64,000 nt of DNA from Candidatus Hadarchaeota archaeon. GTDB taxonomy: Archaea > CAYQAE01 > CAYVLA01. Made by a program: the position numbers and the translations under genes. The stretch's first letter is position 1, and every line of letters begins with the position of its first letter. The stretch lies in NCBI GenBank assembly GCA_964621445.1, contig CAZUNO010000007.1, positions 32,001 through 96,000 on the forward strand, given 5' to 3'. A model generated the notes under the pieces. That model saw only the letters and a list, made by a program, of their open reading frames with translations, was not told the DNA's origin and made no database searches. Of this stretch, positions 8,920 to 33,469 are shown in pieces.

Positions 8920-9261
8920 TTAACCTATCGCGTCCTCCCCGCGTTCCCCGGTCCTTATCCTTATACATTCCTTGAGGTCGACCACGAAGATCTTTCCGTC
9001 ACCTATCTCTCCGGTTCTAGCACCATCTATTATTGCCTGGATGGTCGGTTCCACAAATTCCTCGTTTACTCCGATTTCTATCCTGACCTTCTTGAGGAGA
9101 TTCACTTCCCGGGTGACCTGTCTGTAGACCTCTTTGTACCCCCGTTGCTGGCCGCACCCAAGGGCATTGGTCACCGTCATCTTGAAAACCTCTGCCTTTG
9201 CCAAAGCCGCCTTTACGTCCGGGAGTTTATGCGGTTGAATTATCGCGGTTACTATCTTCAT
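8920..9261 (-). CDS. glnK: P-II nitrogen regulatory protein
   Basis: [37 protein letters not shown]; directly downstream of amtB. Confidence 0.95.
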
Positions 9262-9272
9262 CTAAACGCCTC

Positions 9273-10595
9273 TCACTCGGCCACGAATATCTGAAATCCA
9301 CTGTAGGATTCCATGCCGTGTTCACCTATATCCAGACCCCTGATTTCCTCCTCCCGGCTGACCCTTAGCCCCATTAAACGGTCTAGCGCCTTGAAGAAGG
9401 CATACATAACCAATCCTACAAAGGCCAACAGTGCCACCACGCCGGTGATCTGGACCGATAGCAGTCCGAAGCCAGCGCCAGATGTAATACCCCTTGTGCT
9501 GTGGAAGAGGCCCACTGCCAGCGTTCCCCAAATGCCGTTCATTCCGTGGACCGGAATGGCACCCACGGGGTCATCGATTCCCCGCCGGTCCAGAAAGGTG
9601 ACCCCGAGAACGGTTACTGGACCCGAAAGGAGGCCTATGACCGCCGAGGAGGAGATGCTTACGAAAGCGCAGGGGGCTGTTATGGCCACAAGTCCACCTA
9701 GTGCTCCGTTCATGGTCATACCTACATCAGGCTTCCCAAGGCGAAACCAGGCTATTACCAGGGAGCCCAAAGCCCCGGTGGCAGCTGCGATATTGGTGTT
9801 CACGGCGACCTTTGCTATGAGGTCCGAGTCCATTCCCGACAGCGAGCTCCCGGGATTGAATCCAAACCACCCGAACCAGAGAATAAACACTCCCAGCGCT
9901 GCCAGTGGTATGTTGTGACCCATTATGACCTTTGCCTTTCCGTCACGGGCGAACTTTCCGATACGTGGTCCCAAAACCAGTGTCCCCATCAGGCCAGCGA
10001 TACCCCCCGTAGCGTGAACCACACTGGACCCTGCAAAGTCCACGAATCCCAGATCCTGAAGCCAGCCACCACCCCATATCCAGTGCCCGACGATGGGATA
10101 GACCAAGGTGCTAATCAACAGGGAGTATGTGATATATCCCGAGAACTTCATTCTCTCCGCCACGGCACCGGAAACTATGGTAGCAGCGGTCCCACAGAAC
10201 ACGGCCTGGAAAAGCCAGAATGCTGGCGTCGGAATTCCGGCCATTTCGGAGGGTAAGTTCGATAGAAAGACACCAGTTGTTCCCATTACCTGGTTTCCAA
10301 GCCCAAACATGATTCCAAAACCAATGACCCAGAACCCGATGGAGGCCATGCAGAAGTCAAGGAGGTTCTTCATGATGATGTTTCCAGCGTTCTTGGCCCG
10401 TGTGAATCCTACCTCCAACATGCCGAAACCGGCCTGCATGAAGAAAACCAGAAAGGCGGCCAGGAGCACCCAGAGGGTGTTTATGCTTCTCATTATCTCG
10501 GTCAGGCCTGGCGTATCTGATAGTGCAAAAACCCCTGGCAGAAAGACCATTAGAATCAGCAGGAGTATTGACGAACTCACAGCTCCGTTGTCCAT
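9273..10595 (-). CDS. amtB: Ammonium transporter
   Basis: FFMQAGFGMLE, SGAVAER, DFAGSSVVH, LWFGWFGFN, DDPVGAIPVH, GLDIGEHG. Confidence 0.97.
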   Translation of the reverse strand: MDNGAVSSSILLLILMVFLPGVFALSDTPGLTEIMRSINTLWVLLAAFLVFFMQAGFGMLEVGFTRAKNAGNIIMKNLLDFCMASIGFWVIGFGIMFGLGNQVMGTTGVFLSNLPSEMAGIPTPAFWLFQAVFCGTAATIVSGAVAERMKFSGYITYSLLISTLVYPIVGHWIWGGGWLQDLGFVDFAGSSVVHATGGIAGLMGTLVLGPRIGKFARDGKAKVIMGHNIPLAALGVFILWFGWFGFNPGSSLSGMDSDLIAKVAVNTNIAAATGALGSLVIAWFRLGKPDVGMTMNGALGGLVAITAPCAFVSISSSAVIGLLSGPVTVLGVTFLDRRGIDDPVGAIPVHGMNGIWGTLAVGLFHSTRGITSGAGFGLLSVQITGVVALLAFVGLVMYAFFKALDRLMGLRVSREEEIRGLDIGEHGMESYSGFQIFVAE

Positions 10596-10654: not shown

Positions 10655-10687
10655 TTGCTATACGTATTAGTAATAATTATACGTATT
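10655..10687. promoter_or_regulatory. Tandem palindromic operator upstream of amtB-glnK (TATACGTATT x2)
   Basis: Copies at 10659-10668 and 10678-10687, 19 bp apart; same motif upstream of the glutamate synthase operon and glnA. Confidence 0.75.
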
Positions 10688-10734: not shown

Positions 10735-11559
10735 CTAGAAGTAGGTTCTACCCTCGAATGCCAGGGCTGCCGGACCACGAACTGAAGTTCTATCCCCCAG
10801 GATTATGTCAAGTTTGCCCCCGGGCATTTCCACTGTCCATTGGTCATAATCGGGGTTGAGTTCATTTGCCGCCCTGGCTGCTGCCATAGCTCCAGAGCCA
10901 CATGCCTGGGTTTCGCACGCTCCCCTCTCGTGAACCCTCATATTCAACTTGCCAGGTTCATCCATCCGAACGAATTCCGTGTTGATTCCCTGGGGGCTAA
11001 ACTGATCGTGATACTCCATTGCGTGACCAATACCCTCCACATCGATGGATCCCAGATCACCATCAATGAATGTGACTGCATGTGGGTTCCCTACATCTAT
11101 GAGATGGTATATCAGCGCTGTTCCCGCGGCCTCAACCTTCCTGAATCCCTGGTATAGGGGCATGTCATCCATTTCCAGCTCTACTATGGCCTCCAGGTCA
11201 TTCACCATGTCAACGATCTTGGCCCTAACCGTTCCCCCGGCGGTGAGTATGTTGAAAGACTTTTCCTGCCCTTCCCATAACCTGAGATGAAGGGCAAGTG
11301 CGGCGCATCTAAGCCCGTTCACGCAGGTCTCGGCCTCCGACCCGTCGGCGTTAAATATCCTGAACTGGACTCCATGGTCCTCCCTCCTAAGGAATAATAC
11401 ACCATCGGCGCCAATACCCCTGTTTCGATTACACTTTTGCGAGCAAAAGCTGGATTTTCGGTCTTCCTCCACTACCTCGGATCCGGTCTCATCGATAAGC
11501 ACGAAATCGTTTCCCAGTCCATGAAGCTTTAGAAATTCCACTTTTTCCATTTTCACCAT
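10735..11559 (-). CDS. dapF: Diaminopimelate epimerase
   Basis: HGLGNDF, FNADGSEAETCVNGLRC, GNPH, ERGACETQACGSG. Confidence 0.93.
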   Translation of the reverse strand: MVKMEKVEFLKLHGLGNDFVLIDETGSEVVEEDRKSSFCSQKCNRNRGIGADGVLFLRREDHGVQFRIFNADGSEAETCVNGLRCAALALHLRLWEGQEKSFNILTAGGTVRAKIVDMVNDLEAIVELEMDDMPLYQGFRKVEAAGTALIYHLIDVGNPHAVTFIDGDLGSIDVEGIGHAMEYHDQFSPQGINTEFVRMDEPGKLNMRVHERGACETQACGSGAMAAARAANELNPDYDQWTVEMPGGKLDIILGDRTSVRGPAALAFEGRTYF

Positions 11560-12726
11560 CTACAGGGAAAGTTCAAGCATCCTCTCGCATGCCTCTTTGG
11601 TCCTTTCCAGGTCCGGTACAAGCGCGAACCGGAGGAAGTCCTTTCCAGCGTCCGTCGATTGACACAGGGCCTTTCCGGGTACGGTATTCAGGTAAGCTCC
11701 CTCGAGAAGCATCTTGGTGAATTCCAAGGAGTCCATTCCATTGGGCGCTCTAGCCCATATATAGAAGGTCGCGTCCGCATAAACGGACTCCAGACCCATT
11801 TCCTCCAGGGTCCCAACAAGCAAATCCCTCTTCTCCCTGTATTCCCGCCTTAGGCTATCCACATGATCCTCATCTGATAATGCGGCCACGGCCGCATCCT
11901 GGATGAATGTTGCTGCACCCGAATGTGCCTGAGTCTGCACCTTTTTGAAGGGGTCAAGTAGTTCCTTCCTCCCGGCCACAAAAGCTATCCTATAACAGGT
12001 CATGCTTGACCTCTTGGATAACGAGTTAAAGACCAGGGAAACATCCCTTGCACCGGGGATGGAAAACACCGATACCGGTTTCTCATCATAATAGAGCTCG
12101 GAGTATGCCTCATCGGATGCCAGAAGAACGTCGTTTTCCCTACAGAATTCCACGGCGTCCTGGAGGAACTCAACGGGCGCTATCTTGGTGGTGGGATTAT
12201 TCGGGTAGTTGATCCATAGTATCTTTGCCCGTTTACATATCTTGGAAGGTATGCTGGAGAGATCGGGCAGAAAGGAGTTTTCCTCTTCCAGAGGGAGATA
12301 GTAACATCTACCACCCCGGGCCCCGGTTCCGGTCGTGTAGGGAGGATATCCCGGGTCCGGAATCAGGACCACATCATCGGGGTTCACATAGGCCAGAGGT
12401 GTCAAGAATACGGCCTGTTTACAGCCTATAGTTGCCGTGATCTCCGAGTTGGGGTCCAGGGACACCCCAAATCTCCTTTCAAACCAGGTGGCGACCGCGG
12501 ACCTGAATTCAGGGGACCCTTCATAGCTCGGATATCCCGACCGGGCCCTCCTATCCAGTCCGCTCTTACAGGCCTTACGAACGATCATGGGGGTAGGGGA
12601 AGTTGGATCTCCAACTCCAAAATCAATCACGTCCACTCCTTTGCTCTCCAATTCATCCCGGGTCCTGTCAATTTCCGCAAAAGCGTATGGCCGAATCTTG
12701 GTGATGAAGCTACTCGGGGATACCAA
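11560..12726 (-). CDS. dapL: LL-diaminopimelate aminotransferase (class I/II PLP enzyme)
   Basis: PYAFAEID, FGVGDP, NYPNNPT, DEAYSE, SLSK motifs; abuts dapF. Confidence 0.8.
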   Translation of the reverse strand: MVSPSSFITKIRPYAFAEIDRTRDELESKGVDVIDFGVGDPTSPTPMIVRKACKSGLDRRARSGYPSYEGSPEFRSAVATWFERRFGVSLDPNSEITATIGCKQAVFLTPLAYVNPDDVVLIPDPGYPPYTTGTGARGGRCYYLPLEEENSFLPDLSSIPSKICKRAKILWINYPNNPTTKIAPVEFLQDAVEFCRENDVLLASDEAYSELYYDEKPVSVFSIPGARDVSLVFNSLSKRSSMTCYRIAFVAGRKELLDPFKKVQTQAHSGAATFIQDAAVAALSDEDHVDSLRREYREKRDLLVGTLEEMGLESVYADATFYIWARAPNGMDSLEFTKMLLEGAYLNTVPGKALCQSTDAGKDFLRFALVPDLERTKEACERMLELSL

Positions 12727-12738
12727 TAGATCTACAAC

Positions 12739-13524
12739 CTATGCATAGAGTCTAGAGTAGGGCCTCGTTTCCCGGGGTACTACCTTGCAGAACTCGGTGG
12801 GGTTCACTTCCCGTTTCAACTCGAATCTCTTCCTGAAGTCATCGATATGAGTGGTCAGGAAGTCTCTGTCCGCCTTGTCCAAGCTCTTGATCCGGGCACC
12901 CTCCCCTAGCTGCATTTCGTTGATCTTTCCACGTATGTAAATGATTCCGCCGTGCATACCAGTTCCGATGAATCTCATGCGATGTCTCTTGTATCCCAGG
13001 CCCAGAACGATCACCCGGCCTCCAGCCATATACTCCCCCAGAAAATCCTGAGCAGTTCCTCCAATCATCAAGATGGGAAACCTCTCCCCGTGCTCCTTAA
13101 TATGGAGGGCGGCTCTATAACCAGCATCCTCCCGAACCAATATGGAACCGCCTGTGGCCGACATTCCAAGTATATCCCCACATCTCCCCTCGACGATTAT
13201 CTCTCCCTCATGCATGGTATTACCAACCCCGTCCTGAGCATTCCCATGAACAACCAGGATATGTCCATCCATGAAGGACCCGAGATCGTTTCCGGGGGTT
13301 CCCCAGATCTCAATTTTGGTTGGGGGAAGGCCATTAAGCCGGGTTCCTATATACCTCTGCCCATATACCCCTCTGAGAATTATTTTCCTGCTACCCGACC
13401 GGGCTGCGGATAGAATTTCGGTGTTGAGTTCCCTGAATTCGAGCTGTCCGGCTTCGATCTCCGTGTGCTTTGTATCAGCGCTGCAGACGGGTCTCCTTTC
13501 CGGACTGGTGGTGGTTGACATCAT
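12739..13524 (-). CDS. Glutamate synthase, C-terminal GXGXG beta-helix subunit (GltB domain 3)
   Basis: GQRYIG, GNDLGSFMDG, GEYMAGG, GTGMHGG repeats. Confidence 0.9.
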   Translation of the reverse strand: MMSTTTSPERRPVCSADTKHTEIEAGQLEFRELNTEILSAARSGSRKIILRGVYGQRYIGTRLNGLPPTKIEIWGTPGNDLGSFMDGHILVVHGNAQDGVGNTMHEGEIIVEGRCGDILGMSATGGSILVREDAGYRAALHIKEHGERFPILMIGGTAQDFLGEYMAGGRVIVLGLGYKRHRMRFIGTGMHGGIIYIRGKINEMQLGEGARIKSLDKADRDFLTTHIDDFRKRFELKREVNPTEFCKVVPRETRPYSRLYA

Positions 13525-15041
13525 TGACCAGCTCCCCTTATCCCCAGAACGTCAAGCTCCCAGTCCGTTAGGCCGATGCCCCTCAACTGCTCGCGATTTC
13601 CCCGCAAGCTTTCCAGGGCATTGATGCCCATTCCTCCCAGCATTTCCTTGATCTCCAGGGACCAGGCGTGAAGTAGGCGTACCAGTCTTCTGGAAGCGAC
13701 ATCGGGATTAATTCTCTTTGATAGATATGGGTCCGTAGTACATATGCCCCAGTTACATATGCCGGTATAGCACTTCTGGCACAAGGTGCAGCCCATGGCC
13801 ACCAGGGCAGCCGTACCCAGGTACACCGCGTCTGCCCCCAGAGCTATTGCCTTCACAACGTCAGCGCTACAGCGAAAACCACCTGCGGAGATTATTGAGC
13901 ATTCGTTTCTAATCCCCTCGCTTCTCAAACGGGAATCGATTGAGGCCAGTGCCATCTCGATTGGTATGCCCACGTTATCCCGTATGGCCTTGGGAGCGGC
14001 CCCGGTTCCCCCTCTCAGGCCGTCTATCGCTATGACATCAGCTCCAGCCCTTGCTATACCGGAGGCTATGGCCGGTGCATTGTGAACGGCAGCTATCTTG
14101 ACTGAAATGGGCTTCTGGTAATTCGTCGCCTCCTTCAATGCGAATATCAACGTTCTCAGATCCTCGATCGAGTAGATATCATGCTGGGGGGCCGGGGAAA
14201 GTGCATCAGTTCCGGCGGGTATCTTTCTGGTGGATGATATCTCGGTTGAGACCTTTTCTCCTGGAAGGTGCCCACCTATGCCGGGCTTTGCACCCTGGCC
14301 AATCTTTATTTCCACCATAGACGAGTTTGCGAGATATTCAGGCTCGACCCCGAAGCGGCCTGAGGCGCATTGAACTATGGCGTGATCCTTGTATTTTCGT
14401 AATTTCTCGGGAAGTCCACCTTCTCCCGAGTTGAACAATGTCCCTGATTCATTTGCCGCTCGTGCCAGGGATTCCTGGGCCTGTCCGCTGATGGCCCCAA
14501 AGCTCAGGGCCGAGAAGATGAGAGGTGTTTCTATTTCCAGCAGAGGGTCCTCATCGCCAGCATTCCCATCCATCAATATCGCTTTCTTGGGCTTGCGTCC
14601 CAGGAACGTCCTGAGCTCCATGGGCTCTCTGAGGGGGTCGATTGAGGGATTTGTAACTTGGGAGGCGTTTAGGACCATGTGGTCCCAGTAGATCGTCTGG
14701 TCCTTATCGTTACCGCAACCGGCAAGAAGCGCCCCACCCGATTCTGCCTGCCTCTTAATATCCGATATCTTTTCCCGCGTCCAGTTAGAGTTTCGGGTAT
14801 AAGGGTGCTGGTTTTCCGAGATGCTTAAAGCGGAAGTGGGGCAGAGCACCACACATCTCTGGCATCCTGCACACTTAGATTCGTCGCTCAGGATGATGTC
14901 CCTCCCCTGGTCATATGTGTGGACATCGAATCCACACTGTCTTATGCAGACCTCACATCTGATACAGCGATCATCATCCCTGGCGATGCTGAAATTTGGG
15001 AGAAGCTGGGTTTCAAGCAACGACCTCACCCCTATGAACAC
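13521..15041 (-). CDS. Glutamate synthase, FMN-binding subunit with N-terminal 2x[4Fe-4S] (GltB domain 2)
   Basis: Two CxxCxxCxxxC motifs; EIKIGQGAKPGIGGHLPG; SPAPQHDIYSIEDL; CTLCQKCYTGIC [3Fe-4S] motif. Confidence 0.95.
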   Translation of the reverse strand: MFIGVRSLLETQLLPNFSIARDDDRCIRCEVCIRQCGFDVHTYDQGRDIILSDESKCAGCQRCVVLCPTSALSISENQHPYTRNSNWTREKISDIKRQAESGGALLAGCGNDKDQTIYWDHMVLNASQVTNPSIDPLREPMELRTFLGRKPKKAILMDGNAGDEDPLLEIETPLIFSALSFGAISGQAQESLARAANESGTLFNSGEGGLPEKLRKYKDHAIVQCASGRFGVEPEYLANSSMVEIKIGQGAKPGIGGHLPGEKVSTEISSTRKIPAGTDALSPAPQHDIYSIEDLRTLIFALKEATNYQKPISVKIAAVHNAPAIASGIARAGADVIAIDGLRGGTGAAPKAIRDNVGIPIEMALASIDSRLRSEGIRNECSIISAGGFRCSADVVKAIALGADAVYLGTAALVAMGCTLCQKCYTGICNWGICTTDPYLSKRINPDVASRRLVRLLHAWSLEIKEMLGGMGINALESLRGNREQLRGIGLTDWELDVLGIRGAGQ

Positions 15042-16153
15042 TCATATGAAACACCATCCCCAAGGCGACCTATTATGGGAACTCCTCCCTGCGGGGACCA
15101 CGCCCTATCGAGGTCTTGGTCGATCATTCGGAGCGGAGCCTCCTCCGAGGATAGATAGAGCACGTCCCCGGAAATACCCGCGGTCAATGGCCTGAGACGA
15201 ATCCTATCGGTGAGTCCGATCATCTCTCCCTCTCTGGCAATTATTACCGAGAACGGGCCATTTAGTAGGAGTCCACCATAAGTTATTCTCAAGGCCCTGT
15301 AGAGACGCCTTTTGTCGGGTTCCATCCTATCGATGGTATCCCAAAGTGGGGGCGCTAGCACCCTTGCTGCAAGCTCCAGAGGCAGGGCATGTCCCCTTAC
15401 CAAAAGATCCATTGTGTAGGCAATGACCTCGGTGTCAGTGAAGAAGCTGCATCTATAGCCGTGGTCCTCCACGAACCTCTTGTTTGCACCGTAGGATGAG
15501 ATCTCCCCATTATGAACGACTGACCAGTCAAGCATGCTAAACGGGTGCGCACCCCCCCACCAGGCGAGGGTGTTGGTTGGAAATCTTCCATGTGCCAGCC
15601 AGATGTATCCTCTGTAGTCCTGGAGACGGTAGAACCTGGCAAGATCTCCCGGGTACCCGATCCCCTTGAAAACACCCATATTCTTCGCGGCGGAAAATAC
15701 GAAGGCATCCCCAATACCGTGGTTGATCTCCGTCACCTCTTCGGCAACCATTTCCTGTGAATTCGGTTGCCCCTCCTCCGTCCTGAGGAAGTATCGCCAA
15801 AGAATTGGGGCCTTGGCCACCGCGCTCACCTCATCGTCGGTCGGTATCCGTTCCTCGTCCCGGACATCGAAGTTTTCGTATAATCTGGCTTCGGTCAGCT
15901 CCTTTCCTTCCCTGGACTCGTACATGATATGAAACGCGTAGTCGTCGGCATGATCCGGATAAAGACCATATATCGAGAACCCGCCGCCGAGACCATTGGA
16001 CCTCTCCTTCATATTGGATATGGCCCTTATTGTGGATCGGCCATCCAGCAACTTCCCCGACATGTCCATCATTCCGAATATGGAGCAGTTGGATATGACC
16101 TTCGTGTCACCGTAAGGGTTGTTCTTCCTCTCAATATTCAGCAACATTATCAC
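15032..16153 (-). CDS. Glutamate synthase, class II glutamine amidotransferase subunit (GltB domain 1)
   Basis: CSIFG, ERSNGLGGGF, HGRFPTNT, AHPF, HNGEISSY, TDTE, DRIRLRP. Confidence 0.92.
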   Translation of the reverse strand: MIMLLNIERKNNPYGDTKVISNCSIFGMMDMSGKLLDGRSTIRAISNMKERSNGLGGGFSIYGLYPDHADDYAFHIMYESREGKELTEARLYENFDVRDEERIPTDDEVSAVAKAPILWRYFLRTEEGQPNSQEMVAEEVTEINHGIGDAFVFSAAKNMGVFKGIGYPGDLARFYRLQDYRGYIWLAHGRFPTNTLAWWGGAHPFSMLDWSVVHNGEISSYGANKRFVEDHGYRCSFFTDTEVIAYTMDLLVRGHALPLELAARVLAPPLWDTIDRMEPDKRRLYRALRITYGGLLLNGPFSVIIAREGEMIGLTDRIRLRPLTAGISGDVLYLSSEEAPLRMIDQDLDRAWSPQGGVPIIGRLGDGVSYECS

Positions 16154-17411
16154 CTTCCGTTAGGATCTTCCGCCTGCAGGCGGTAGGCAGGTCGACCAGC
16201 GAGAAACCTTCCGCGGTGGGGGGTCTATGGAGATCACTCAGAGGGGTGCCGTTCCTCATCAACTGCAGGTATATTCCAGTATTGTCGATATTGCCGACCC
16301 GTATGAACCCCACCAGTTTGCCGTTCCTGGTAACGAATTTGCTGTAATTTAGGTCCCCTTCCTCACATACCTGGTTCCAATTACCTCCCTCCCTGGCCTC
16401 AGTGATGCCGGCGGAGAGTATTGAAGTTCCGAAAAAATGCATAGAATTCATTGAGGTAGCCCACTGCGAACTAGCTCTCTTTCCTGCCATATTGTATCCT
16501 GCAACCATGCCCTCTACATATGCGGCCGGCCAGAGAGCCAGGGTTCGGTTTTGCCCCTCGATAAAATCAAAGGTCTGGGCACAATCACCGGCAGCGTAAA
16601 TGTGAGGTACATTGGTGCTCATGGACTTGTTCACCATTATTCCCCTATCTACCTGAATCCCGGCATCCTCCGCGAGGTCGGTTCGGGGCCGAACGCCTAT
16701 AGCGACCACCAGTAATTCACAGGAGAGCCGACGTCCATCATCCAAAATCGCCAGGATCCCCTTTCCGCTTGAGCATACACTTTCGAGGGTGTGGCCGGTA
16801 ATCAAATTGAGTCCTCGATCCTTGAAGAGAAGCTGGACCATATTCGATGCCGGTTGGTCCAGGACTGATGATAGTATTCTGGAGGCTAGCTCGACAATAG
16901 TTACCTCCAGTCCGATTTCCAGAAGCGGCTCGGCCAGAGAACACCCTATCAGTCCCCCGCCCAGAATTACCACTTTGGAGATATTCCCACTTTCAATTTT
17001 CTCCCTGATAACCCGGGCATCGGATATACCGGAAAATGTCAGGGCGTTAGACCTCAAACCGGGGATAGGAGGAATGAATGGGGTGCCCCCCGTAGCCAGC
17101 AGGAGGTCATCGAACCCGATCGAGTCCCCATCATCCAATTGAACCTCACGCGAATCGGTCTCCAGTCGAACCGCCTTTTTGCCACCAAGAAATGTGACCT
17201 GGTTCCGTTCATAGAATTCCGCCGGCCGATACCATAGATCCTCCACATTCCTCTTACCGCAAATAATATCCCCAATTGAAGGTCTACTGTAGGGAGGGTT
17301 GTTTTCCTCCGATACCACACAGATATCCTGGCAACAGCCAAGCCTCCTGATGGCCTCTATGGCCCCCACCGAAGCGGCCGAGTTTCCGATTATGATGTTA
17401 TGATAACTCAT
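16131..17411 (-). CDS. FAD/NAD(P)H-dependent oxidoreductase (NirB/Nox-like)
   Basis: IIGNSAA, LLATGG, GGGLIG, YAAGDCA; overlaps its neighbours in the operon. Confidence 0.9.
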   Translation of the reverse strand: MSYHNIIIGNSAASVGAIEAIRRLGCCQDICVVSEENNPPYSRPSIGDIICGKRNVEDLWYRPAEFYERNQVTFLGGKKAVRLETDSREVQLDDGDSIGFDDLLLATGGTPFIPPIPGLRSNALTFSGISDARVIREKIESGNISKVVILGGGLIGCSLAEPLLEIGLEVTIVELASRILSSVLDQPASNMVQLLFKDRGLNLITGHTLESVCSSGKGILAILDDGRRLSCELLVVAIGVRPRTDLAEDAGIQVDRGIMVNKSMSTNVPHIYAAGDCAQTFDFIEGQNRTLALWPAAYVEGMVAGYNMAGKRASSQWATSMNSMHFFGTSILSAGITEAREGGNWNQVCEEGDLNYSKFVTRNGKLVGFIRVGNIDNTGIYLQLMRNGTPLSDLHRPPTAEGFSLVDLPTACRRKILTEGDNVAEY

Positions 17412-17836
17412 GTAGTCTCCTCCAGAGATATCGCTTCGTTAGGGCAATGCTCAACGCAGGCCGGGATTTCCCGATCTTCACACAGATCACATCTGATGGG
17501 GTGATCCTTTCCCTTCCTGACCGCCCCAAATGGACATACCAGAATACAGGTCCAGCACGATCTACACCTGTCATAGTCCAGTTGAATCGAGCCATCGACT
17601 CTTTTCAGAGCCCCTGAGGGACAGGAGTATACACATGCGGGGTCATCGCACTGTCGACATTGCAGTGGAAAGGTGACCGGCATTATTTCGTGGACGGTTA
17701 CCCTTGATTCCGGGCGAGGCTTCTCCAACTTGAAGCAATTAATCAAGTCGTTGGACTTCGAGTGGGCAACGACGCACCAAATCTCGCAGAGGTGGCATCC
17801 GATGCATGCATCCTCGTTAACTGCCAGTCTATTCAA
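17408..17836 (-). CDS. Multi-[4Fe-4S] electron-transfer protein (HydN/DmsB-like)
   Basis: Four Cys clusters: CIGCHLCEIWC, CRQCDDPACVYSCP, CRSCWTCILVCP, CDLC..PACVEHCP; 4 bp ATGA overlap with the flavoprotein gene. Confidence 0.92.
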   Translation of the reverse strand: MNRLAVNEDACIGCHLCEIWCVVAHSKSNDLINCFKLEKPRPESRVTVHEIMPVTFPLQCRQCDDPACVYSCPSGALKRVDGSIQLDYDRCRSCWTCILVCPFGAVRKGKDHPIRCDLCEDREIPACVEHCPNEAISLEETT

Positions 17837-17889
17837 AGGACCACTTCAGGTACGGGGGTATAGTGGTTGTGCATATTATTGGAAAAATA

Positions 17890-17931
17890 TTTACGTATTG
17901 AAGTACGAGTTAGTATTTGAAATACGTATTT
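17890..17931. promoter_or_regulatory. Operator cluster in the divergent promoter between the glutamate synthase operon and the regulator
   Basis: TTTACGTATT 17890-17899, degenerate AGTACGAGTT 17902-17911, perfect AAATACGTATTT 17920-17931. The last overlaps a minus-strand TTTAAATA TATA-like box. Confidence 0.75.
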
Positions 17932-18022
17932 AAAATCTGGTTAAACCAATTCTTAAAAATAGGAAACAAATGGGACTAAATACATAAATACGGAACAGAA
18001 TACTTTCCTAGCGTGAATAAGT

Positions 18023-19057
18023 ATGGATGTTGGGGAAGCGGAATATAGAAAGGTTCAGGTCCTTGGCCGGTCAAGTTATGCAGTAACCCTGCCCAAGGAT
18101 TGGGTGCGTGATAGGAAACTAGATTCCGGATCAGTTGTAGTTGTAACCGTTGATAAGAAGGGAATACTGCATGTCATGCCGGAGGTCATGCACTCGGAGA
18201 AGGAGGAGCCCGCCGAGAAAAAGTTAGATGCAACTGATATCACCACCGGAGGAGCTCTGGCAAGCACGATCAAGGCATGCTATAAGATCGGATACGAGAA
18301 CATCAACATAAGGCATCCAGGCGGGCTTCGCCCTGATTTAATCAGGGAGATACATGAGGCGGTTGATAGTCTATACGGAACGCTGGTGGTAAAGGAATCC
18401 GCCAATGAAACGGTTGTCCACACCTCCATAGACGTCCGTACCTTCACGGTCAGTTCCCTGATCTCCAGAATGGGTTCATTCTTCCTTTACCTATCAGAGG
18501 AGGTCGAGAAGGCTCTCAGGGAGGGCGTTTTGCAGGACCCAACGACGGTTGAGTACCGAGCGAGGGAGGTCGACAAGATATACTCGCTACTGGTAAGACA
18601 ACTAGTACAGGGAGTAAAGAGCCAGCAGGTGGCCTCGAGGGTTGGGCTGGCCGATGTGATTCAATGCCTCGGCTCTAGAATGGTTGCTAAGGCCCTCAAG
18701 GACATGACCAGAAGCATGTTCATGATATCGGGAGTCGCAAATCAGGCATCAAAAGGCAGAAAAGAGGATGTAGAGGAAATAATCCGTTTCATTAGCGAAA
18801 TTAGGGCAATGTACGATAAGGCATATCAGGCCCTCAGGCGCGAAGATGTTGAACGGGCCGCCGAGATACTTGGTGAGGAGGACTCCTTCCATAATAAACT
18901 GGTGGATTTCGAGAGATCTCTTCCCAAGGAGGAGGACCAGAGGTCCGTGATTTCGGCCGAGGTTTCCTTTGTATGGGAGCTACAGAACGTGCTCAGATCG
19001 ATAATGATACTTGCAGAAATCGCGGTTAACCGGACCGTTGAACGTGAGGAGATGTAG
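18023..19057 (+). CDS. AbrB/SpoVT DNA-binding domain plus tandem PhoU domain transcriptional regulator
   Basis: RKVQVLGRSSYAVTLPKDWV AbrB-type N-terminus; ..YKIGYENI..; PhoU-like helical repeats (REVDKIY). Confidence 0.88.
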   Translation: MDVGEAEYRKVQVLGRSSYAVTLPKDWVRDRKLDSGSVVVVTVDKKGILHVMPEVMHSEKEEPAEKKLDATDITTGGALASTIKACYKIGYENINIRHPGGLRPDLIREIHEAVDSLYGTLVVKESANETVVHTSIDVRTFTVSSLISRMGSFFLYLSEEVEKALREGVLQDPTTVEYRAREVDKIYSLLVRQLVQGVKSQQVASRVGLADVIQCLGSRMVAKALKDMTRSMFMISGVANQASKGRKEDVEEIIRFISEIRAMYDKAYQALRREDVERAAEILGEEDSFHNKLVDFERSLPKEEDQRSVISAEVSFVWELQNVLRSIMILAEIAVNRTVEREEM

Positions 19058-19058
19058 A

Positions 19059-20138
19059 CTACCCCAGCGCTTCATTCAATGCTTCTAACAGGATCCCGTT
19101 CTGGTCCGGAGTACCGATTGTAACCCTTATGAACTGACCCTCCAGCCCCTGAACCCCCTGAAGGTCTCTTACCAATACTCCTCGATTAGCGAGTTCGTTG
19201 ACCAGGTTTGGGATTCGGGGATCGACCCTGATCATCAAGAAATTCGCTTCCGAGGGCAGGGGAAATAACCCTTCCATCCTAGATACCTCGGAAAATACCT
19301 CCAGGCGATTCTTCCTGATTCTCTCCCATATCATGGAGTAATACGGTGAGCAGGACAGAGCCGATATTGCGGCCGAAGCTGAAAGTTTACTCACGCTAAA
19401 GGGGTTCCGGGACTTGCGCATCTTGGAGATCAAGGATTCATGACCGACCGCGTATCCAACACGAAGTCCTGCCAGGCCAAAGGACTTGGACATCGATCTG
19501 GCTATAATGAGATTCGGGTGTTGATCAAGGATGTCAAGTGCAGAGCAACCGGAGAATTCGGCGTACGCCTCGTCGAGGAACACAATTCCATCGGAGTTCT
19601 CGACTATCTCTATCAATTCATGCCGCTCTATTGCCCTTCCAGTTGGATTATTGGGCGAGCAGAGAAAAGTGATTTTTGATCTCTCTCCTCCGGAAATTAG
19701 GTCACCCGACCTAACGCTATATTCCCTGTCTTCCGTGCTCGCGAAGAATATCTGGGCCTCCCTGAGCATGGACATCAGGATGTACAGGCTGTAGGAGGGA
19801 ACCGGAATTATTATCCTGTCAAAAGGTTCCACAAAGACCTTGCAGACGATATCGATGATCTCGGTGCAGCCGCCGGCCACAGCTATATTTTCCTTTGGGA
19901 AACCGATGTGTTTGCCTATCGCGGTCCTCAGATGAACATAATCAGGGTGAGGATAGCGATTTATTCTAGGTATTTCTTCGAAAATTGCCTGTTGGACCGC
20001 CGGAGCTGGAGGGTAGGGACTCTCATTTGATGCCAAGTTGACTACATGTTCGGGATCAAGACCGAATAGGCGATGGACATCCCCAGGGAACAGGCCAGGG
20101 TCGTAGGGCTCTATGTAATCAATTACATCTCTATGCAT
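19059..20138 (-). CDS. hisC: Histidinol-phosphate aminotransferase
   Basis: LASNESP, CSPNNPTG, DEAYAEF, RSMSKSFGLAGLRVGY, RVTIG. Confidence 0.88.
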   Translation of the reverse strand: MHRDVIDYIEPYDPGLFPGDVHRLFGLDPEHVVNLASNESPYPPAPAVQQAIFEEIPRINRYPHPDYVHLRTAIGKHIGFPKENIAVAGGCTEIIDIVCKVFVEPFDRIIIPVPSYSLYILMSMLREAQIFFASTEDREYSVRSGDLISGGERSKITFLCSPNNPTGRAIERHELIEIVENSDGIVFLDEAYAEFSGCSALDILDQHPNLIIARSMSKSFGLAGLRVGYAVGHESLISKMRKSRNPFSVSKLSASAAISALSCSPYYSMIWERIRKNRLEVFSEVSRMEGLFPLPSEANFLMIRVDPRIPNLVNELANRGVLVRDLQGVQGLEGQFIRVTIGTPDQNGILLEALNEALG

Positions 20139-20142
20139 GTAT

Positions 20143-20460
20143 CTAGAGCCCTTCCATCATATTTCCAAGTCTTTCAAGGCGCTTGCTGACCTCATCTATG
20201 GTTGTGTCCTTGCCGGGCTTCTCGGCAACTCCGGCCTGGGACCAGAACAGCCTGGCGATTATCAGCATTAGCTTGCCCGCGTAACCAGGTGCGTGAGGGA
20301 GGATATCAGCCGCAAGATCTCCAAATTCCTCAAGGACATCATCATCCATCTCTTTGACCATGGTGCTGGCCTTTCCCAGAAGAGAGATTGCATTTCCCAG
20401 AACCTTTTCCCTCTTCACATATGCTTTGGCAGCATCGCTCGTTACTCTATGTACACCCAT
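20143..20460 (-). CDS. Small helical hypothetical protein between glnA and hisC
   Basis: 105 aa ORF that fills the gap (9 bp and 4 bp spacers), with a GAGGTGA ribosome-binding site on the minus strand. Confidence 0.75.
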   Translation of the reverse strand: MGVHRVTSDAAKAYVKREKVLGNAISLLGKASTMVKEMDDDVLEEFGDLAADILPHAPGYAGKLMLIIARLFWSQAGVAEKPGKDTTIDEVSKRLERLGNMMEGL

Positions 20461-20469
20461 TCTATCACC

Positions 20470-21933
20470 TCAGTAATCCATATACTTCATTATCTCCCAC
20501 GGCGTTACGTAGAGACAATATTGATTCCACTCATCGATCTTGAGACCAACAAATTGTTCGAATATGTGATCCCCGAGAAGGTCCAAGAGGACTTGATCCG
20601 TGCTCAGATGATCGATGGCGTCTCTCAAGGTGGTCGGTAGCTCTCCCACGCCGTGTTCCTCCTTCTCAGCTGCGGACAGTCCATACATGTCCGTACGTAG
20701 GGGGTCTCCAGGCTCTATCTTGTTCTTAATTCCGTCCAGCCCGGCCGCCAGCATTGCCCCGAAAGCAACGTACGGGTTGCAGGTTGGGTCTGCGGCCCTG
20801 TACTCACAACGTATGGCTCCCGGGCTGCTAAAGTATAGAGGTACCCTGATGAGGGCGCTCCTGTTCCTGGGGCTCCAGCTGATGTTAATTGGGGCCTCGA
20901 ACCCCGGGACCAATCTCTTGTAGCTATTCACGGTCGGGCAGCAGAGAGCGGTAAGGGCCTTTGAGTGTTCAATTAGCCCGCCGATGTAGTATCTGGCCGT
21001 CTGACTCAGGTTGTAATCCTCGTCAGGATCGTAGAAGACATTCTCGCCCTTGAAGGGCTCACCTTTCCAGAGGCTCTGGTGGGTATGCATTCCGCTGGCA
21101 TTATCCAGGTAAATTGGCTTGGGCATGAAGGTGGAGACCCATCCATACCTATCGGCCACGTTCTTGGCAGCGAATTTGTAGGTGTAGAAGGCGTCCCCGC
21201 ATTCGACGAGCGTCTTAGCTTTGTAATTAAGTTCGACCTGACCGGAGGTCGCAACCTCGTGGTGATGGTACTCTATATTGACATCCATGCTTTCGAGATA
21301 TGAGGCCAGTTCGTTTCTATAATCATTAGTAGTATCTTCGGGAGGCGCACGAAAGTATGCCTCCTTGGGTCTCAGAGGAACCTTCCCGGTCGTCGTCTCG
21401 GGTGACCGGGGGACCACCCTGGGGGGACCCCAGGAATCTCCCTTTCCACCATTTGGGGATACGAAGGGATCGTATACCAGGTTCGTTGGATCTATGCTTT
21501 CAAAGACAAAGAACTCAATTTCTGGGCCAAAAACCGCAGAATAGCCCATCGATTCGGCCATCTCCACCGCCTTTCTACCAACGTAACCACGTGGGTCAAC
21601 CTCGGATGGATTTCCATCGCTGCTTTCACCAAAGGCCTCGAATATGTCCCCGAAGACCATTACCGAGCGTTGAACTGGTTCCTCGATCCAGGGAATGTAC
21701 CTTAAACTGGATGTATCAGGTACCCAAACCATATCGCTACTTTCTATGGACTTAAATCCGCGAATCGATGAGCCATCGAATCCTACACCTTCCGTGGCAT
21801 CTCCTTTTATGAACTCCCTAACCGGTATGGTGAAGCTCTGGAGTATACCCCTCAGATCGCTAAACATGCACATGACGTTCTTGGCCTGAGAGTTCTCTAT
21901 TAGCTCGAGGAAGTTGTCCTTCTCCATACACAT
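20470..21933 (-). CDS. glnA: Glutamine synthetase type I
   Basis: FDGSSI, GPEIEFF, HHHEVA, TFMPKP, SGMHTHQSLW, NSYKRLVPGFEAP, NRSALIRVP. Confidence 0.97.
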   Translation of the reverse strand: MCMEKDNFLELIENSQAKNVMCMFSDLRGILQSFTIPVREFIKGDATEGVGFDGSSIRGFKSIESSDMVWVPDTSSLRYIPWIEEPVQRSVMVFGDIFEAFGESSDGNPSEVDPRGYVGRKAVEMAESMGYSAVFGPEIEFFVFESIDPTNLVYDPFVSPNGGKGDSWGPPRVVPRSPETTTGKVPLRPKEAYFRAPPEDTTNDYRNELASYLESMDVNIEYHHHEVATSGQVELNYKAKTLVECGDAFYTYKFAAKNVADRYGWVSTFMPKPIYLDNASGMHTHQSLWKGEPFKGENVFYDPDEDYNLSQTARYYIGGLIEHSKALTALCCPTVNSYKRLVPGFEAPINISWSPRNRSALIRVPLYFSSPGAIRCEYRAADPTCNPYVAFGAMLAAGLDGIKNKIEPGDPLRTDMYGLSAAEKEEHGVGELPTTLRDAIDHLSTDQVLLDLLGDHIFEQFVGLKIDEWNQYCLYVTPWEIMKYMDY

Positions 21934-21979
21934 CGCCAGGTACTGTTACAATAGATCTAAGAAAAGTATTGACCAATGA

Positions 21980-22013
21980 GAATACGTATTCATACAACGA
22001 ATACGTATAGCAA
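21980..22013. promoter_or_regulatory. Tandem palindromic operator upstream of glnA
   Basis: GAATACGTATTC 21980-21991 and AATACGTATA 22000-22009, 19 bp apart. 22000-22013 is the exact reverse complement of 10655-10668. Confidence 0.78.
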
Positions 22014-22116: not shown

Positions 22117-23358
22117 TTGAGGGCGAAGACACCGATCGTTTTGATGTGCATTATCCTTTTTTTATCATCACAGTGCCAGGGACAAGGGGATCAGAGAAAG
22201 ATAGAGGTCCTTGTATTGAGCAAGGCAAACGTCGTTCAGACCCTGTCGGCCTGGTTCAATGCGGAGCCTTCAATAGATTTCTCTATCGTGGTCACCCGGG
22301 TTTACGGCGAGGTGACGAGGGAAGATATCAGGAGGTACATGAGGCTCTATTTCCCCAGGTCCTACCAAGCCCTGAATTCCTATGATTTCTACTACCTTGC
22401 CCAGACCGATATGACATTCCTTTCCCCCAAGCAGGAGAAATGGATCTATGATGCTATTACTGGGGGATCGAAGGGCGGTGTCAATACCAGGAGCGTCATG
22501 AGCACCCATGACTGGTTCAATGTACCCTGGGCGGATAGCGTGGTGTCAGAGGCTTTTCCGAATAACGCGGATACAGTTGTGTCCGATGAAGCGCATCAGC
22601 AGGCACCTCCCGGTCCTCTGGTGATCAAGGACGACCCTGAATTACCGGCGATAATGAAACCATATAAGGAGCCGCTGGAAGGGATCTTTACCAACCTGGA
22701 AGGCCTAAACACCATACCCAAGCCCGGGTCTGTCATCCTTTCCTACGTCAGGAATAACCAGGGGCAAGGACACCCCATTCCGGGACAGGTTGCCCACATA
22801 TTTTACTGGAAATGGAACAATTCAATCACCTTCACCTTTCAGGATCAACCCGTCCATCTTTTCTGGAATCAACCAGGCTCCACACTGCACAACCCCTACA
22901 CCATTGATATAACGGCAAATGTGATCTGGTTCGCAACCGGCCGTGAGCTTCCAGATGACCCCTTAAGGGTTCACGATTTCAGGCGGGACCTCTATGACTT
23001 TAACATCGGGAAGTCCCTGCTGGTGAGCCTTCTGGACTTTGCCGAGAAGTTCGGGGCCAATCCCGCTCCGATGTATCGGGATCTTGACGAGGTTCAGGGG
23101 TTGAGAGCTCAAGCCAAGGATCATTACCTGGAGGGAAGATTCGATCATGCCTACCAGTCAATGAAGGAAGCAAACAGTGCCCTGGAGTCCCTGGAGGAAA
23201 AGGCAGCCAATCTGAAGGACCGTGCCCTGCTCTGGGTATATATCGTGGAGTGGCTCAGCATCACCGGGGCCCTTCTGGTAGCCGGGTTCGTGGTGTGGAC
23301 CCTGATGGTTAGAAGAACCCTGTACAGGGAGGTATCGGCAACCCGAACCTTTGATTAG
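22117..23358 (+). CDS. Uncharacterised secreted, C-terminally membrane-anchored protein (paralogue 3 of 3)
   Basis: Signal peptide; RLYFPR; LPDDPLRV; RALLWVYIVEW transmembrane segment; RRTLYREV tail. Confidence 0.8.
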   Translation: MRAKTPIVLMCIILFLSSQCQGQGDQRKIEVLVLSKANVVQTLSAWFNAEPSIDFSIVVTRVYGEVTREDIRRYMRLYFPRSYQALNSYDFYYLAQTDMTFLSPKQEKWIYDAITGGSKGGVNTRSVMSTHDWFNVPWADSVVSEAFPNNADTVVSDEAHQQAPPGPLVIKDDPELPAIMKPYKEPLEGIFTNLEGLNTIPKPGSVILSYVRNNQGQGHPIPGQVAHIFYWKWNNSITFTFQDQPVHLFWNQPGSTLHNPYTIDITANVIWFATGRELPDDPLRVHDFRRDLYDFNIGKSLLVSLLDFAEKFGANPAPMYRDLDEVQGLRAQAKDHYLEGRFDHAYQSMKEANSALESLEEKAANLKDRALLWVYIVEWLSITGALLVAGFVVWTLMVRRTLYREVSATRTFD

Positions 23359-24647
23359 TTTCGGGGAAGCTTCCCGGCTTCCCGAACGTAGCTAACAGCT
23401 TTGCGCAAGAGGGCCGGGTCCACTCCGACATAGGTCTCTCCGCCTATTGCTACCTGATAGCCTCCCCCGATACCGCCAAGTTCAATGCAATTGTCCAGCT
23501 TGGAACGCACGTGATCGAAGGAAGTGCCCTCGTAGAAATCCTTGCAGTTCAGCCCCCCGGAAAAGTTGACCTTACCCTTTAGGCTCTGTACCGCCTTCTC
23601 CAGCGAACTGAACCCTCCTATATCCATATCCGTTAGCTTGACTTCATTGGCCAAAATGTCGAAGAGATGGTCATTGGGGCCGTCTCCGTGGAGTCTTCTC
23701 CCCTTTGGGCCGAACCTTTCATACATTCTCATTACATAAGGCATCTCGAATTCCCTGTATTGTTCGGGCTTCAGCATCAGCATGTGATCGTCTGCCAGGC
23801 CGAATTTCTCCTTTCTTTTCCCCTCAACCTTCTCCTCATATTCATGGAGTCGTATCTTTTCCTCCGCCAGTTTATTGAAAAACCTGTGTATCAGGTCCGG
23901 ATCGGTGTACATCAACTTTATGACCGTTTTTGGCTCCATCAGAGCGCAGGAGGCAGAGAGGGGGGGATGTATACCTATTCCAGCACCCGCGGAAATGTTC
24001 CCACCCGCGTCCTCAACCCTCTCCTTTGCCTTCCGGTCCAGCTCCCTGACATATTCCAGGCCCGGGTGCTCCTCGGGGTGTGGTATCTCGGTGTTGATGA
24101 ACCGTTCCACGTCATCCTTGGTTTCCAGCTGGCGCACTATCCATGGGGAGGTGTCATCGTGGTACTCAATCTTGAAGCCGAACAATACACCTTCGCCTAC
24201 AGGTCCCAGTTCAGTGCGGAGGCTACACCCCGTGCGATCGTCCTTTAGCCTTTCAAAGGACCATCGGTGCCCTTGCAGCTGGATTTTGAAATCCAGGTCC
24301 ATATTGGAGTAGTAGTCCCGGAGGTCCGCGTTGGATTTATACTGGCCATCATTAAGCTTACAGAAATAGCTCCCGGAAACGCTGATCTTGATGGGAACCG
24401 AATCCGGGGACTCGAATCTCTTACTCATTTCTATCCTTCGGCGGGAGTCCTCGATCTGTTCCTGGTAGTCCTCGATATCGAACTCCCGAATCATGTCCTC
24501 GACTTTCTGGGGTTGAACGATCTCCCTGGATTGCTGCTTCTTCTGGTACTTGATCCATTCCTCTACATTCTCGGATGGAAAAGGTATTTTTTCGCTCAAG
24601 ATTCTCACCTCACCCTGGTGGTGGGTTGTGCAAAAATGTATCGCCAA
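23355..24647 (-). CDS. Uroporphyrinogen decarboxylase (URO-D)/MtaA-like TIM-barrel protein
   Basis: ..DPDLIH.., ADD..MLKPEQYREFEMPY, LHGDG, GGGYQV pattern. Real start may be downstream of 24647. Confidence 0.8.
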   Translation of the reverse strand: MAIHFCTTHHQGEVRILSEKIPFPSENVEEWIKYQKKQQSREIVQPQKVEDMIREFDIEDYQEQIEDSRRRIEMSKRFESPDSVPIKISVSGSYFCKLNDGQYKSNADLRDYYSNMDLDFKIQLQGHRWSFERLKDDRTGCSLRTELGPVGEGVLFGFKIEYHDDTSPWIVRQLETKDDVERFINTEIPHPEEHPGLEYVRELDRKAKERVEDAGGNISAGAGIGIHPPLSASCALMEPKTVIKLMYTDPDLIHRFFNKLAEEKIRLHEYEEKVEGKRKEKFGLADDHMLMLKPEQYREFEMPYVMRMYERFGPKGRRLHGDGPNDHLFDILANEVKLTDMDIGGFSSLEKAVQSLKGKVNFSGGLNCKDFYEGTSFDHVRSKLDNCIELGGIGGGYQVAIGGETYVGVDPALLRKAVSYVREAGKLPRN

Positions 24648-32979: not shown

Positions 32980-32983
32980 TGTT

Positions 32984-33469
32984 TTGGTTTCTGTGAGAAT
33001 AAATCTTGGAGGAGGGCGCTATTTCTCTGCGGCGAAGGATATCTGGGAGGCCGATCGAGCCTATATCGGGGGGCTTTGGGGTTGCCTGGACATGGCCACC
33101 ACGGACGTACTAACCACCTCCGATGATATTGGGGGAACCGATGATATGGCACTCTACCAGACGATCCGGGTCGGTGAGGAGTTTAGATATAGATTCGATA
33201 TGGACCCCGGTAGTTACAGAGTGGGGATCCTGTTTGCCGAGATATTCTGGGAATCCAGCGATGCTGAGGCTGAAGATGTCTACATAAATGGCCAGAAATT
33301 CATCGAGAATTACAATATTTACGATGAGGCCGGGCACGATGTGGCGGTTAAGAAGGAGTTTGAGGTAAGTAGCGATGATGGAGTGCTTGAGGTAAGGTTC
33401 GTTGGAAAGTCCATTCCCATGCACTCGGGTGCCAGAGCGTGTGGGATCGAGGTAGTATCCTTAGATTAG
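32984..33469 (+). CDS. Stand-alone malectin-domain protein
   Basis: RINLGG, LYQTIR, FAEIFW, DVYING, ACGIEV. TTG start at 32984 follows GGAGG. Confidence 0.85.
   Translation: MVSVRINLGGGRYFSAAKDIWEADRAYIGGLWGCLDMATTDVLTTSDDIGGTDDMALYQTIRVGEEFRYRFDMDPGSYRVGILFAEIFWESSDAEAEDVYINGQKFIENYNIYDEAGHDVAVKKEFEVSSDDGVLEVRFVGKSIPMHSGARACGIEVVSLD

Follow-up and report, generated by a model that had tools for sequence, protein, structure and literature searches.

An AbrB-PhoU protein as a candidate nitrogen regulator in the ammonium-assimilation island of a Hadarchaeota archaeon

A gene for a protein joining an AbrB-type DNA-binding domain to a PhoU fold lies among ammonium-assimilation genes in a 64,000-nucleotide stretch of DNA from a Candidatus Hadarchaeota archaeon (contig CAZUNO010000007.1, positions 32,001 to 96,000; "the window" below is this whole stretch). 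On balance the protein is probably a one-component regulator, from a small, fast-evolving branch of the AbrB-PhoU family dedicated to the adjoining genes: the glutamate-synthase operon (glt), the operon of glnA, a 105-aa gene and hisC (glnA-105aa-hisC) and, where present, amt-glnK. Comparison of loci gave strong evidence for such a nitrogen-dedicated branch; the link from the protein to its presumed operator is circumstantial. Archaeal nitrogen control is understood mainly through NrpR, and the protein is, judged from sequence, a good candidate for a nitrogen regulator of a new type. An earlier interpretation of this locus, made from the letters of the DNA (the sequence-only reading), was partly supported, and the observation itself was confirmed.

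The candidate gene and its conserved neighbours

The candidate transcription factor (TF) gene, P0001, occupied 18023..19057 of the plus strand and, by open reading frame (ORF) and translation, encoded 344 aa from an ATG start, with an N-terminus that could be aligned with those of 14 orthologues. The sequence-only reading had started the gene at 17837, which is the first base of a 186-bp spacer (17837..18022) common to the TF gene and the glt operon. The gene was divergent from the minus-strand, split glutamate-synthase operon, as had been claimed and as ORFs, Pfam matches and orientation bore out, and was convergent with the minus-strand hisC side.

Three minus-strand gene groups were presumed targets. 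The glt operon, from Fer4 to DapF (10735..17836), comprised by Pfam and NCBIfam matches Fer4 (17408-17836), Pyr_redox_2 (16131-17411), the split glutamate-synthase subunits GATase_2 (15032-16153), Glu_synthase (13521-15041) and GXGXG (12739-13524), a DAP-type aminotransferase (11560-12726) and DapF (10735-11559). The operon glnA-105aa-hisC (19059..21933), convergent with the TF gene, held HisC (19059-20138; TIGR01141, 321.6 bits, over the cut-off), the 105-aa ORF without a Pfam or NCBIfam family (20143-20460) and GlnA (20470-21933). The amt-glnK pair (8920..10595), a presumed target in this genome, consisted of Amt (9273-10595) and the P-II protein GlnK (8920-9261). Among the 37 ORFs of at least 100 aa in the window (E-value limits 0.001 and 1e-5), no second DNA-binding domain and no phosphate transporter was found, in agreement with the sequence-only reading. 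Eight of the 37 matched no family, and seven of these were still blank or at chance level when rescanned at E up to 1.

This arrangement was conserved in 12 related loci, three from genome records ('Candidatus Hadarchaeota archaeon' or 'uncultured Thermococci archaeon') and nine metagenomic; several were near-duplicates, so that the set amounted to about eight lineages at 57-79% identity. Fer4 and Pyr_redox_2 were divergent from the TF gene in 12/12 loci, hisC was convergent in all 10 that extended beyond the TF 3' end, and the 105-aa gene with glnA was present in the nine long enough to show it. The order of the glutamate-synthase operon was the same in each related locus of sufficient reach. 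The TF was the only recognisable DNA-binding protein retained in the island across all lineages. The collection contained five genomes of this phylum-level group; an orthologue was present in 3/3 genomes of the same family and absent from one genome of another family.

A more distant case, the strongest individual finding of the comparison, came from tracing the 105-aa gene through 61 genomes. Genome G028, related to the window genome at domain level only, with 35.6% GC and the sole member of its phylum-level group, carried in order amt, glnK, a 258-aa ORF, glnA, the 105-aa gene and hisC, the last convergent with a gene for a 339-aa AbrB-PhoU protein. This protein was 33% identical to the window protein, scored 239 bits on the clade profile, contained the clade signatures GLxDVIQCLG and KIYSLLxRQL, and grouped with the clade at SH-aLRT 100 (IQ-TREE, 67 rows), a grouping to be read with both branches being long and the amino-acid make-up of the G028 protein unusual. 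No pst genes were found near the TF gene at the 12 related loci or at the G028 locus. Nitrogen linkage of the orthologues, which the sequence-only reading had proposed as a check, was thus seen at 12/12 related loci and in G028. Another genome, G038, had glnA and the 105-aa gene and no TF orthologue (best match 60 bits).

The 105-aa gene was itself widespread. Its products (103-107 aa) were all-helical, matched no Pfam or NCBIfam family and were always encoded directly after glnA; homologues were placed in loci L011, L012, L044-L050, L079, L080 and L081. The 38 homologues (47-75% identity) included Theionarchaea, Archaeoglobus veneficus and Archaeoglobales names, and the N-terminus MGVHR and the motif PGYAGK were invariant or nearly so. 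An AlphaFold2 (AF2) model (pLDDT 90.5) had four helices; its best fold match (Z 7.6) did not rise above the noise usual for helical proteins, the fold search with this model showed no recognisable DNA-binding fold, and the protein atlas gave no usable match. The protein is possibly a partner of glutamine synthetase. Outside the island there was another glutamine-synthetase gene (455 aa; G000:C3:14486-15853, equal to L043:12486-13853).

Domain architecture, family and the PhoU bundle

The MazE_antitoxin/AbrB family PF04014 matched residues 12-49 of the TF with 28.3 bits, above the gathering cut-off of 24.7, and scored 38.0 and 42.3 bits in two orthologues. PhoU (PF01895) matched residues 256-334 weakly (27.8 bits, cut-off 23.5). 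An AF2 model built from 138 aligned family members (pLDDT 96, pTM 0.90) consisted of three parts on the plus strand: an AbrB/SpoVT/MazE-type DNA-binding domain (residues 9-53, 18047..18181) with four short strands (11-14, 18-21, 39-43 and 49-53); a small alpha/beta middle domain (65-134, 18215..18424), for which 8xap_A was a weak fold match (Z 8.9 over 73 residues); and a PhoU-fold domain of six long helices (143-342, 18449..19048). The six-helix bundle aligned with 1t72_A at Z 22.7, rmsd 2.8 over 206 aligned residues, and with 2i0m (Z 20.7) and 1xwm (Z 20.6) in VIA-align; Foldseek gave TM 0.77-0.78 to PhoU structures (0.77 for 1xwm), and a profile search against the PDB matched 1t72 at 7e-22. 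Fold searches with the whole model, whose lists were dominated by the PhoU part, gave no clear AbrB match for the N-terminal domain; a Foldseek match to SpoVT 2w1t_B was weak (probability 0.51). The PhoU equivalog model TIGR02135 scored 22.9 bits against a cut-off of 130.25. The protein is not PhoU proper, though it has the PhoU fold.

The C-terminal 200 residues shared the six-helix fold with bacterial PhoU (TIGR02135; 1t72, 1xwm, 2i0m, 1sum) at Z 20-23 and rmsd 2.7-3.5. Bacterial PhoU acts together with PstB and PhoR and lacks a DNA-binding domain, whereas the window protein has such a domain, fell below the equivalog cut-off and lacked an acidic pair described below. Like AbrB and SpoVT of Bacillus, it joins an N-terminal PF04014 domain to a possible sensor domain, which in SpoVT is a C-terminal GAF domain that senses a signal; unlike them it has another C-terminal domain, and the two Bacillus proteins regulate globally, not locally.

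By full-length homology and predicted structure, the window protein is a member of the archaeal AbrB-PhoU fusion family, whose proteins combine AbrB, middle and PhoU-fold parts in a single chain of about 320-360 aa. Among 1.84 billion proteins searched with the clade profile, 2478 representatives passed E<=1e-3 in end-to-end alignments, and 1024 of these also passed E<=1e-10. In the 138-member alignment R9, Q12, G15, L23, P24, W27, Y87, G90, G119, R149 and R192 were invariant or nearly so; of the residues in the N-terminal domain, R9, L23, P24 and W27 were nearly invariant across the family, and R16 was present in 14/14 clade members. Within this family the clade stood apart. By word-based search, 14 relatives of full length were recovered, 57-79% identical, along with one 192-aa fragment (55%); below these, identity fell to 28%. 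In the profile search the clade was a single 50% cluster at 621 bits, and the next full-length protein scored 170 bits. Mean column identity within the clade was 73%, with an invariant signature of its own. In a FastTree tree of 149 rows the 14 clade rows had support 100, a stem of 1.59 substitutions/site (median tip length 0.73) and no close sister group; with such a long branch, the exact place of the clade within the family is unsure.

The window genome (G000; 3.2 Mb, 89 contigs, 96% complete) carried four further full-size AbrB-PhoU genes, five in all, of which one was pst-linked. That paralogue (G000:C1:65584-66564), on another contig than the window, was divergent from pstS, a pstCA fusion, pstB and phoU (236 aa), so that the pst operon has an AbrB-PhoU gene and a phoU gene of its own; an orthologue in G003 (60% identity) was likewise divergent from pstS-pstCA. 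The other three adjoined genes for an amino-acid kinase and an asparagine synthase, for a CYTH protein, and for an OPT transporter. With their counterparts in related genomes, the paralogues fell into separate orthogroups, one for each. The window protein did not cluster with the pst-linked proteins, since these paralogues formed orthogroups of their own and it was only 20-24% identical to those in its genome. The nearest non-clade relatives with context (L014, L016, L017 and L018; 26-29% identity) adjoined ribosomal, TrxR/MetE, DHDPS or nitroreductase genes, and 0/4 had nitrogen or pst neighbours.

As the source passages present Haloferax volcanii PhoU2 (HVO_2374), it and the pst-linked paralogue of G000 resemble the window protein in three-part architecture, in length (about 330-345 aa) and in being divergent from a presumed target operon. 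They differ in adjoining pstS-pstCA-pstB. In the first PhoU repeat of the G000 paralogue, which is about 20% identical to the window clade, E and D are retained, whereas the clade lies beside glt and glnA and has K/R226 and R230. Published accounts, in the passages available, describe PhoU-family regulators in all archaeal genomes examined except N. equitans, as 'putative regulators of phosphate uptake' (PMC2872624), count seven in P. furiosus (PMC6316755) and list the Thermococcus AbrB-PhoU protein TK2245 as chromosome-associated (PMC7325993). In the passages returned by full-text searches, no paper assigned an AbrB-PhoU protein to nitrogen control, and none gave such a protein a defined operator, regulon or effector. 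The sequence-only reading had proposed a repurposed phosphate regulator. Its nitrogen linkage stood; 'repurposed' went too far, the family being multi-purpose and pst linkage being absent from most of the members looked at.

The first PhoU repeat was compared between the 14 clade members and 124 other family members. Position 226 was E in 109/124 of the others and K or R in 13/14 of the clade; position 230 was D in 108/124 and R in 12/14; position 180 was E or D in 106/124 and A in 14/14. The acidic pair of the family, placed in the third helix of the repeat, was thus replaced in the window protein by K226 (18698-18700) and R230 (18710-18712), and its second PhoU repeat was likewise altered. 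The G028 protein had L at 226 and R at 184, thus neither E226 nor D184, but E at 230. A passage of PMC6267482, citing Liu 2005, ties PhoU function to conserved residues coordinating a multinuclear iron cluster and describes them as retained in the pst-linked H. volcanii PhoU2; the replaced acidic pair would probably be among these residues. Loss of the acidic site in the clade fits a changed signal.

The promoter element and the rest of the window

A palindromic element recurred in the three presumed target promoters. With at most one mismatch, AATACGTATT occurred seven times in the window against 0.99 expected, and 0/100 shuffles reached seven. Five of the seven lay in the three promoters (10659, 10678, 17921, 21981 and 22000), and the others at 27420 and 34373. 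In the glt/TF spacer, the site farther from the glt operon was an exact AATACGTATT (17921..17930), and the one nearest it was a weaker copy, TTTACGTATT (17890..17899), abutting an A/T-rich run, read as AAATATTTTT towards glt, some 50 nt upstream of the Fer4 start codon. Upstream of glnA were a proximal AATACGTATT (21981..21990) and a distal site (22000..22009), and upstream of amt the motif scan gave two TATACGTATT sites (10659..10687); both were pairs with 19-bp spacing. A conserved block, AAATACATAAATAC (17978..17991, plus strand), stood about 35 nt before the TF start codon, with similar blocks in 5/9 aligned spacers (the window, L049, L011, L013 and L052), and is probably the TATA region of the TF gene.

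Related loci narrowed the element. Upstream of glnA, seven consecutive columns, ATACGTA, were invariant in 7/7 lineages, with GTA six bases on, giving ATACGTAY-N5-GTAY; the distal window site was part of it, and the proximal palindrome was window-specific. When nine homologous glt/TF spacers were aligned, ACGTA was invariant in all nine and TACGTA intact in eight, L013 having AACGTA. About 25 nt beyond TACGTA, at the place of the exact window site, ATAC-N9-GTAT was present in 5/8 relatives. Across six non-redundant related loci, 16 of the 18 TACGTA hexamers were inside glt/TF, glnA or amt upstream regions, and the amt upstream region of L048 had two copies. The sequence-only reading had described a paired operator: its TACGTA core was conserved in the promoters, but the AATACGTATT 10-mer and the 19-bp pairing appear particular to the window, and the conserved core, as aligned, is (A)TACGTA. 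No TACGTA was found upstream of glnA in G038, which has no TF orthologue. G001, the only same-class genome outside the family in the collection, was dropped as a control for the motif without the TF: it had a fused 1551-aa glutamate-synthase frame, a weak GS-like match and no orthologue of the island GlnA.

Genome-wide, paired ATACGTAT sites occurred only in the island. ATACGTAY or RTACGTAT matched 66 times, 15 of them intergenic, and five of the 15 were in the island; the other 10 were single and beside non-nitrogen genes (ABC ATPase, GH4, NMD3, PIN, AbiEii and unknowns). From these counts the regulon looks local. Near the second glutamine-synthetase gene (G000:C3) no intergenic ATACGTAY or RTACGTAT match was found.

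Some further promoter sequences were observed. A second conserved block lay downstream of TACGTA in 7/7 glnA promoters (TT.TC.TT.G...A...TT.TC, also given as TTCTCATTGG..A..CTTTTC). In the window it occupied 21950-21980 (TTCTCATTGGTCAATACTTTTC in the minus-strand reading), a similar TCTTATTGGTTGAAAGTATAATAT was seen in the amt promoter of L048 (~620-650), and it contained a near-palindrome, TTGG..CCAA. It is presumably core promoter (BRE/TATA), though it might instead be bound by a second factor. The amt and TF upstream regions of G028 shared ACTATATAG(A), which was not claimed as an operator; in a 36% GC genome these may be mere TATA boxes. The spacer between the pst-linked paralogue and pstS held a conserved TCTATATATAGTAT with the palindrome CTATATATAG in G000:C1 (L042, ~8600-8620) and in G003:C84 (L034). 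Together with the G028 sequence, these might be operators similar in shape (xTAy/rTAx palindromes), or plain TATA boxes. A 413-aa ORF without a family (22117-23358, plus strand) was divergent from glnA on the spacer holding the paired sites, a position kept only in L049 (66% identity).

Elsewhere in the window, three URO-D-family paralogues occupied 10 kb (23355-24647, 29720-30784 and 31882-32979) alongside sulfatase and malectin-domain genes (32951-34698), and a fourth lay elsewhere in the genome. From 34868 to 58022 very large surface-type proteins were encoded: a NosD/beta-helix repeat protein of 4835 aa (minus strand), an FG-GAP protein of 2209 aa that carries dockerin and cohesin domains, and a cohesin/PKD protein of 666 aa. 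Pairs of cohesin and dockerin are uncommon among archaea. A PAS histidine kinase gene (59372-62563) was distant from the island.

Signal input, rival explanations and proposed mechanism

GlnK had been named by the sequence-only reading among the possible signals of the regulator. As a conserved sensor it appears unlikely, because G002 (100% complete) and G003 (99% complete) have the TF and the island, and no P-II or Amt was found in either. Both proteins were found in G000 and G001, and in G004 as broken frames only (G004:C104, L072). The amt-glnK pair adjoined dapF in the window and in L048 and was missing from that position in L049, L012 and L044. In the window it sat between an unknown gene of 422 aa and dapF, a junction from which it was absent in L049 (1-1452). 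A predicted complex of three GlnK copies with TF residues 60-344 scored 0.00 against a mark of 0.32; this gave no verdict and was used neither way.

In methanogens, the nitrogen repressor NrpR controls genes such as glnA and amt from paired palindromic operators close to the promoter. The TF would resemble it in the proposed role, as a regulator given over to glnA, amt and genes akin to them that works through operators of this kind; fold and family are unrelated, and the NrpR operator, GGAA-N6-TTCC, differs from the TACGTA-core element. Whether the genome lacks nrpR had been posed as a check. PF01995 (NrpR, NRD1_2 domain) had no match in the 96%-complete window genome or in the three other TF-bearing genomes searched (G002, G003 and G028), and a control search was positive in M. 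jannaschii and M. acetivorans. The 105-aa gene was seen without the clade TF in G015 (G015:C1:262151-262861, L088), where NrpR was present, and in G038, which gave no NrpR match. There are hints of a complementary distribution of TF and NrpR, in numbers far too small to rely on.

Several points weigh against a regulator dedicated to these genes through the TACGTA core. The related genomes are non-independent samples, and long-branch attraction could affect both the placement of the clade and the joining of G028 to it. Exact ATACGTAT was not enriched genome-wide (34 found, about 42 expected). The 11 kb around the G028 TF locus had no TACGTA, so the motif is not shared by the whole clade; at 33% identity a changed specificity of the G028 protein is possible. 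The conserved TACGTA at glt sits at the BRE position beside an A/T run and could be core promoter. The loss of acidic residues could equally mean a lost metal site, with a salt bridge of R230 and K226 to the retained D184 and no new ligand. The assignment of the motif to the TF would follow from adjacency and co-occurrence only, and a hidden or unlinked regulator could bind the sites, eight of the 37 window ORFs being without a family.

The element might accordingly be the operator of a different regulator encoded elsewhere, of Lrp/AsnC type for example or of an unrecognised one, with the TF controlling something else, acting only on the divergent glt operon via other contacts, or co-regulating. 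The ORFs without a family, the retention in G028 of TF and gene order without TACGTA, and the second conserved glnA-promoter block, which could be another factor's, all speak for this, as does the circumstantial nature of the link between protein and site. The motif is, however, confined to the island and paired only there, which would fit a regulator encoded nearby; the spacer upstream of the TF itself holds two of the sites; G038, with glnA-105aa, has neither TF nor motif; and the TF is the only recognisable DNA-binding protein that the lineages all retain in the island. We regard a different regulator as possible, if rather unlikely. It is improbable that the linkage is merely inherited gene order around a general chromatin-associated or unrelated AbrB-PhoU protein. 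The listing of TK2245 as chromosome-associated, in the passage available (PMC7325993), would agree with it, and the unrelated URO-D and second Pyr_redox genes also stay nearby within the genome family; yet the order TF-hisC-105aa-glnA survives at 33% TF identity, at very different GC and with differing surrounding genes, and the clade is strongly conserved, down to its own invariant signature. A TF that still responds to phosphate and couples phosphate status to nitrogen assimilation is very improbable. The PhoU fold is clear, and orthologues, where named, are called 'phosphate uptake regulator' at JGI and NCBI, but the score on TIGR02135 was far below its cut-off, other residues stand in place of the conserved acidic pair, a distinct pst-linked AbrB-PhoU paralogue and a free-standing phoU are present in this genome, and pst genes were found neither near the 12 related loci nor near that of G028.

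For the favoured reading, an AbrB-PhoU regulator dedicated to the ammonium-assimilation genes, a mechanism can be outlined. The AbrB N-termini would form a swapped-hairpin dimer reading the ATAC/GTAT palindrome with its TACGTA core, and the PhoU-fold domains would hold dimers together for joint binding of two sites, or of one site and a nearby GTAY. The TF would sit as a dimer or tetramer at, or just upstream of, the A/T-rich cores of glnA-105aa-hisC, glt and amt-glnK. The remodelled helical bundle, lacking the acidic pair, would take the nitrogen signal directly and not via GlnK; that signal would most likely be a metabolite such as 2-oxoglutarate or glutamine, or possibly glutamine synthetase. 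Through the bundle, the nitrogen-status metabolite, or GlnA, would determine how tightly the TF holds DNA.

AbrB-type proteins are mostly repressors, and archaeal activators usually bind upstream of TATA. We lean slightly towards a repressor that would block TFB/TBP and be released under nitrogen scarcity, because the sites abut or lie just upstream of A/T-rich cores, the glt site is at the BRE position, and most proteins of the AbrB type repress. Activation stays open, the glnA sites being upstream of the presumed TATA, the usual position of an activator. Autoregulation is possible, as there are sites in the TF's own spacer about 50 nt upstream of the AAATACATAAATAC block. A bolder proposal is that the clade is an unrecognised class of archaeal nitrogen regulator that replaces NrpR where it is lacking and directly senses an anionic nitrogen-status metabolite, such as 2-oxoglutarate or glutamate, with a PhoU bundle whose cation-binding acidic pair has given way to basic residues; taken whole, this seems unlikely.

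We rate the clade as a divergent branch, re-targeted in function, of a regulator family that is known but uncharacterised. If the proposal is true, regulon, operator and effector would for the first time be defined for one of the near-universal, uncharacterised archaeal AbrB-PhoU proteins, and with them a function for part of a very large family. The label 'phosphate regulator' would then be unsafe for AbrB-PhoU proteins, and the clade would be an example of how a PhoU fold is adapted to another signal.

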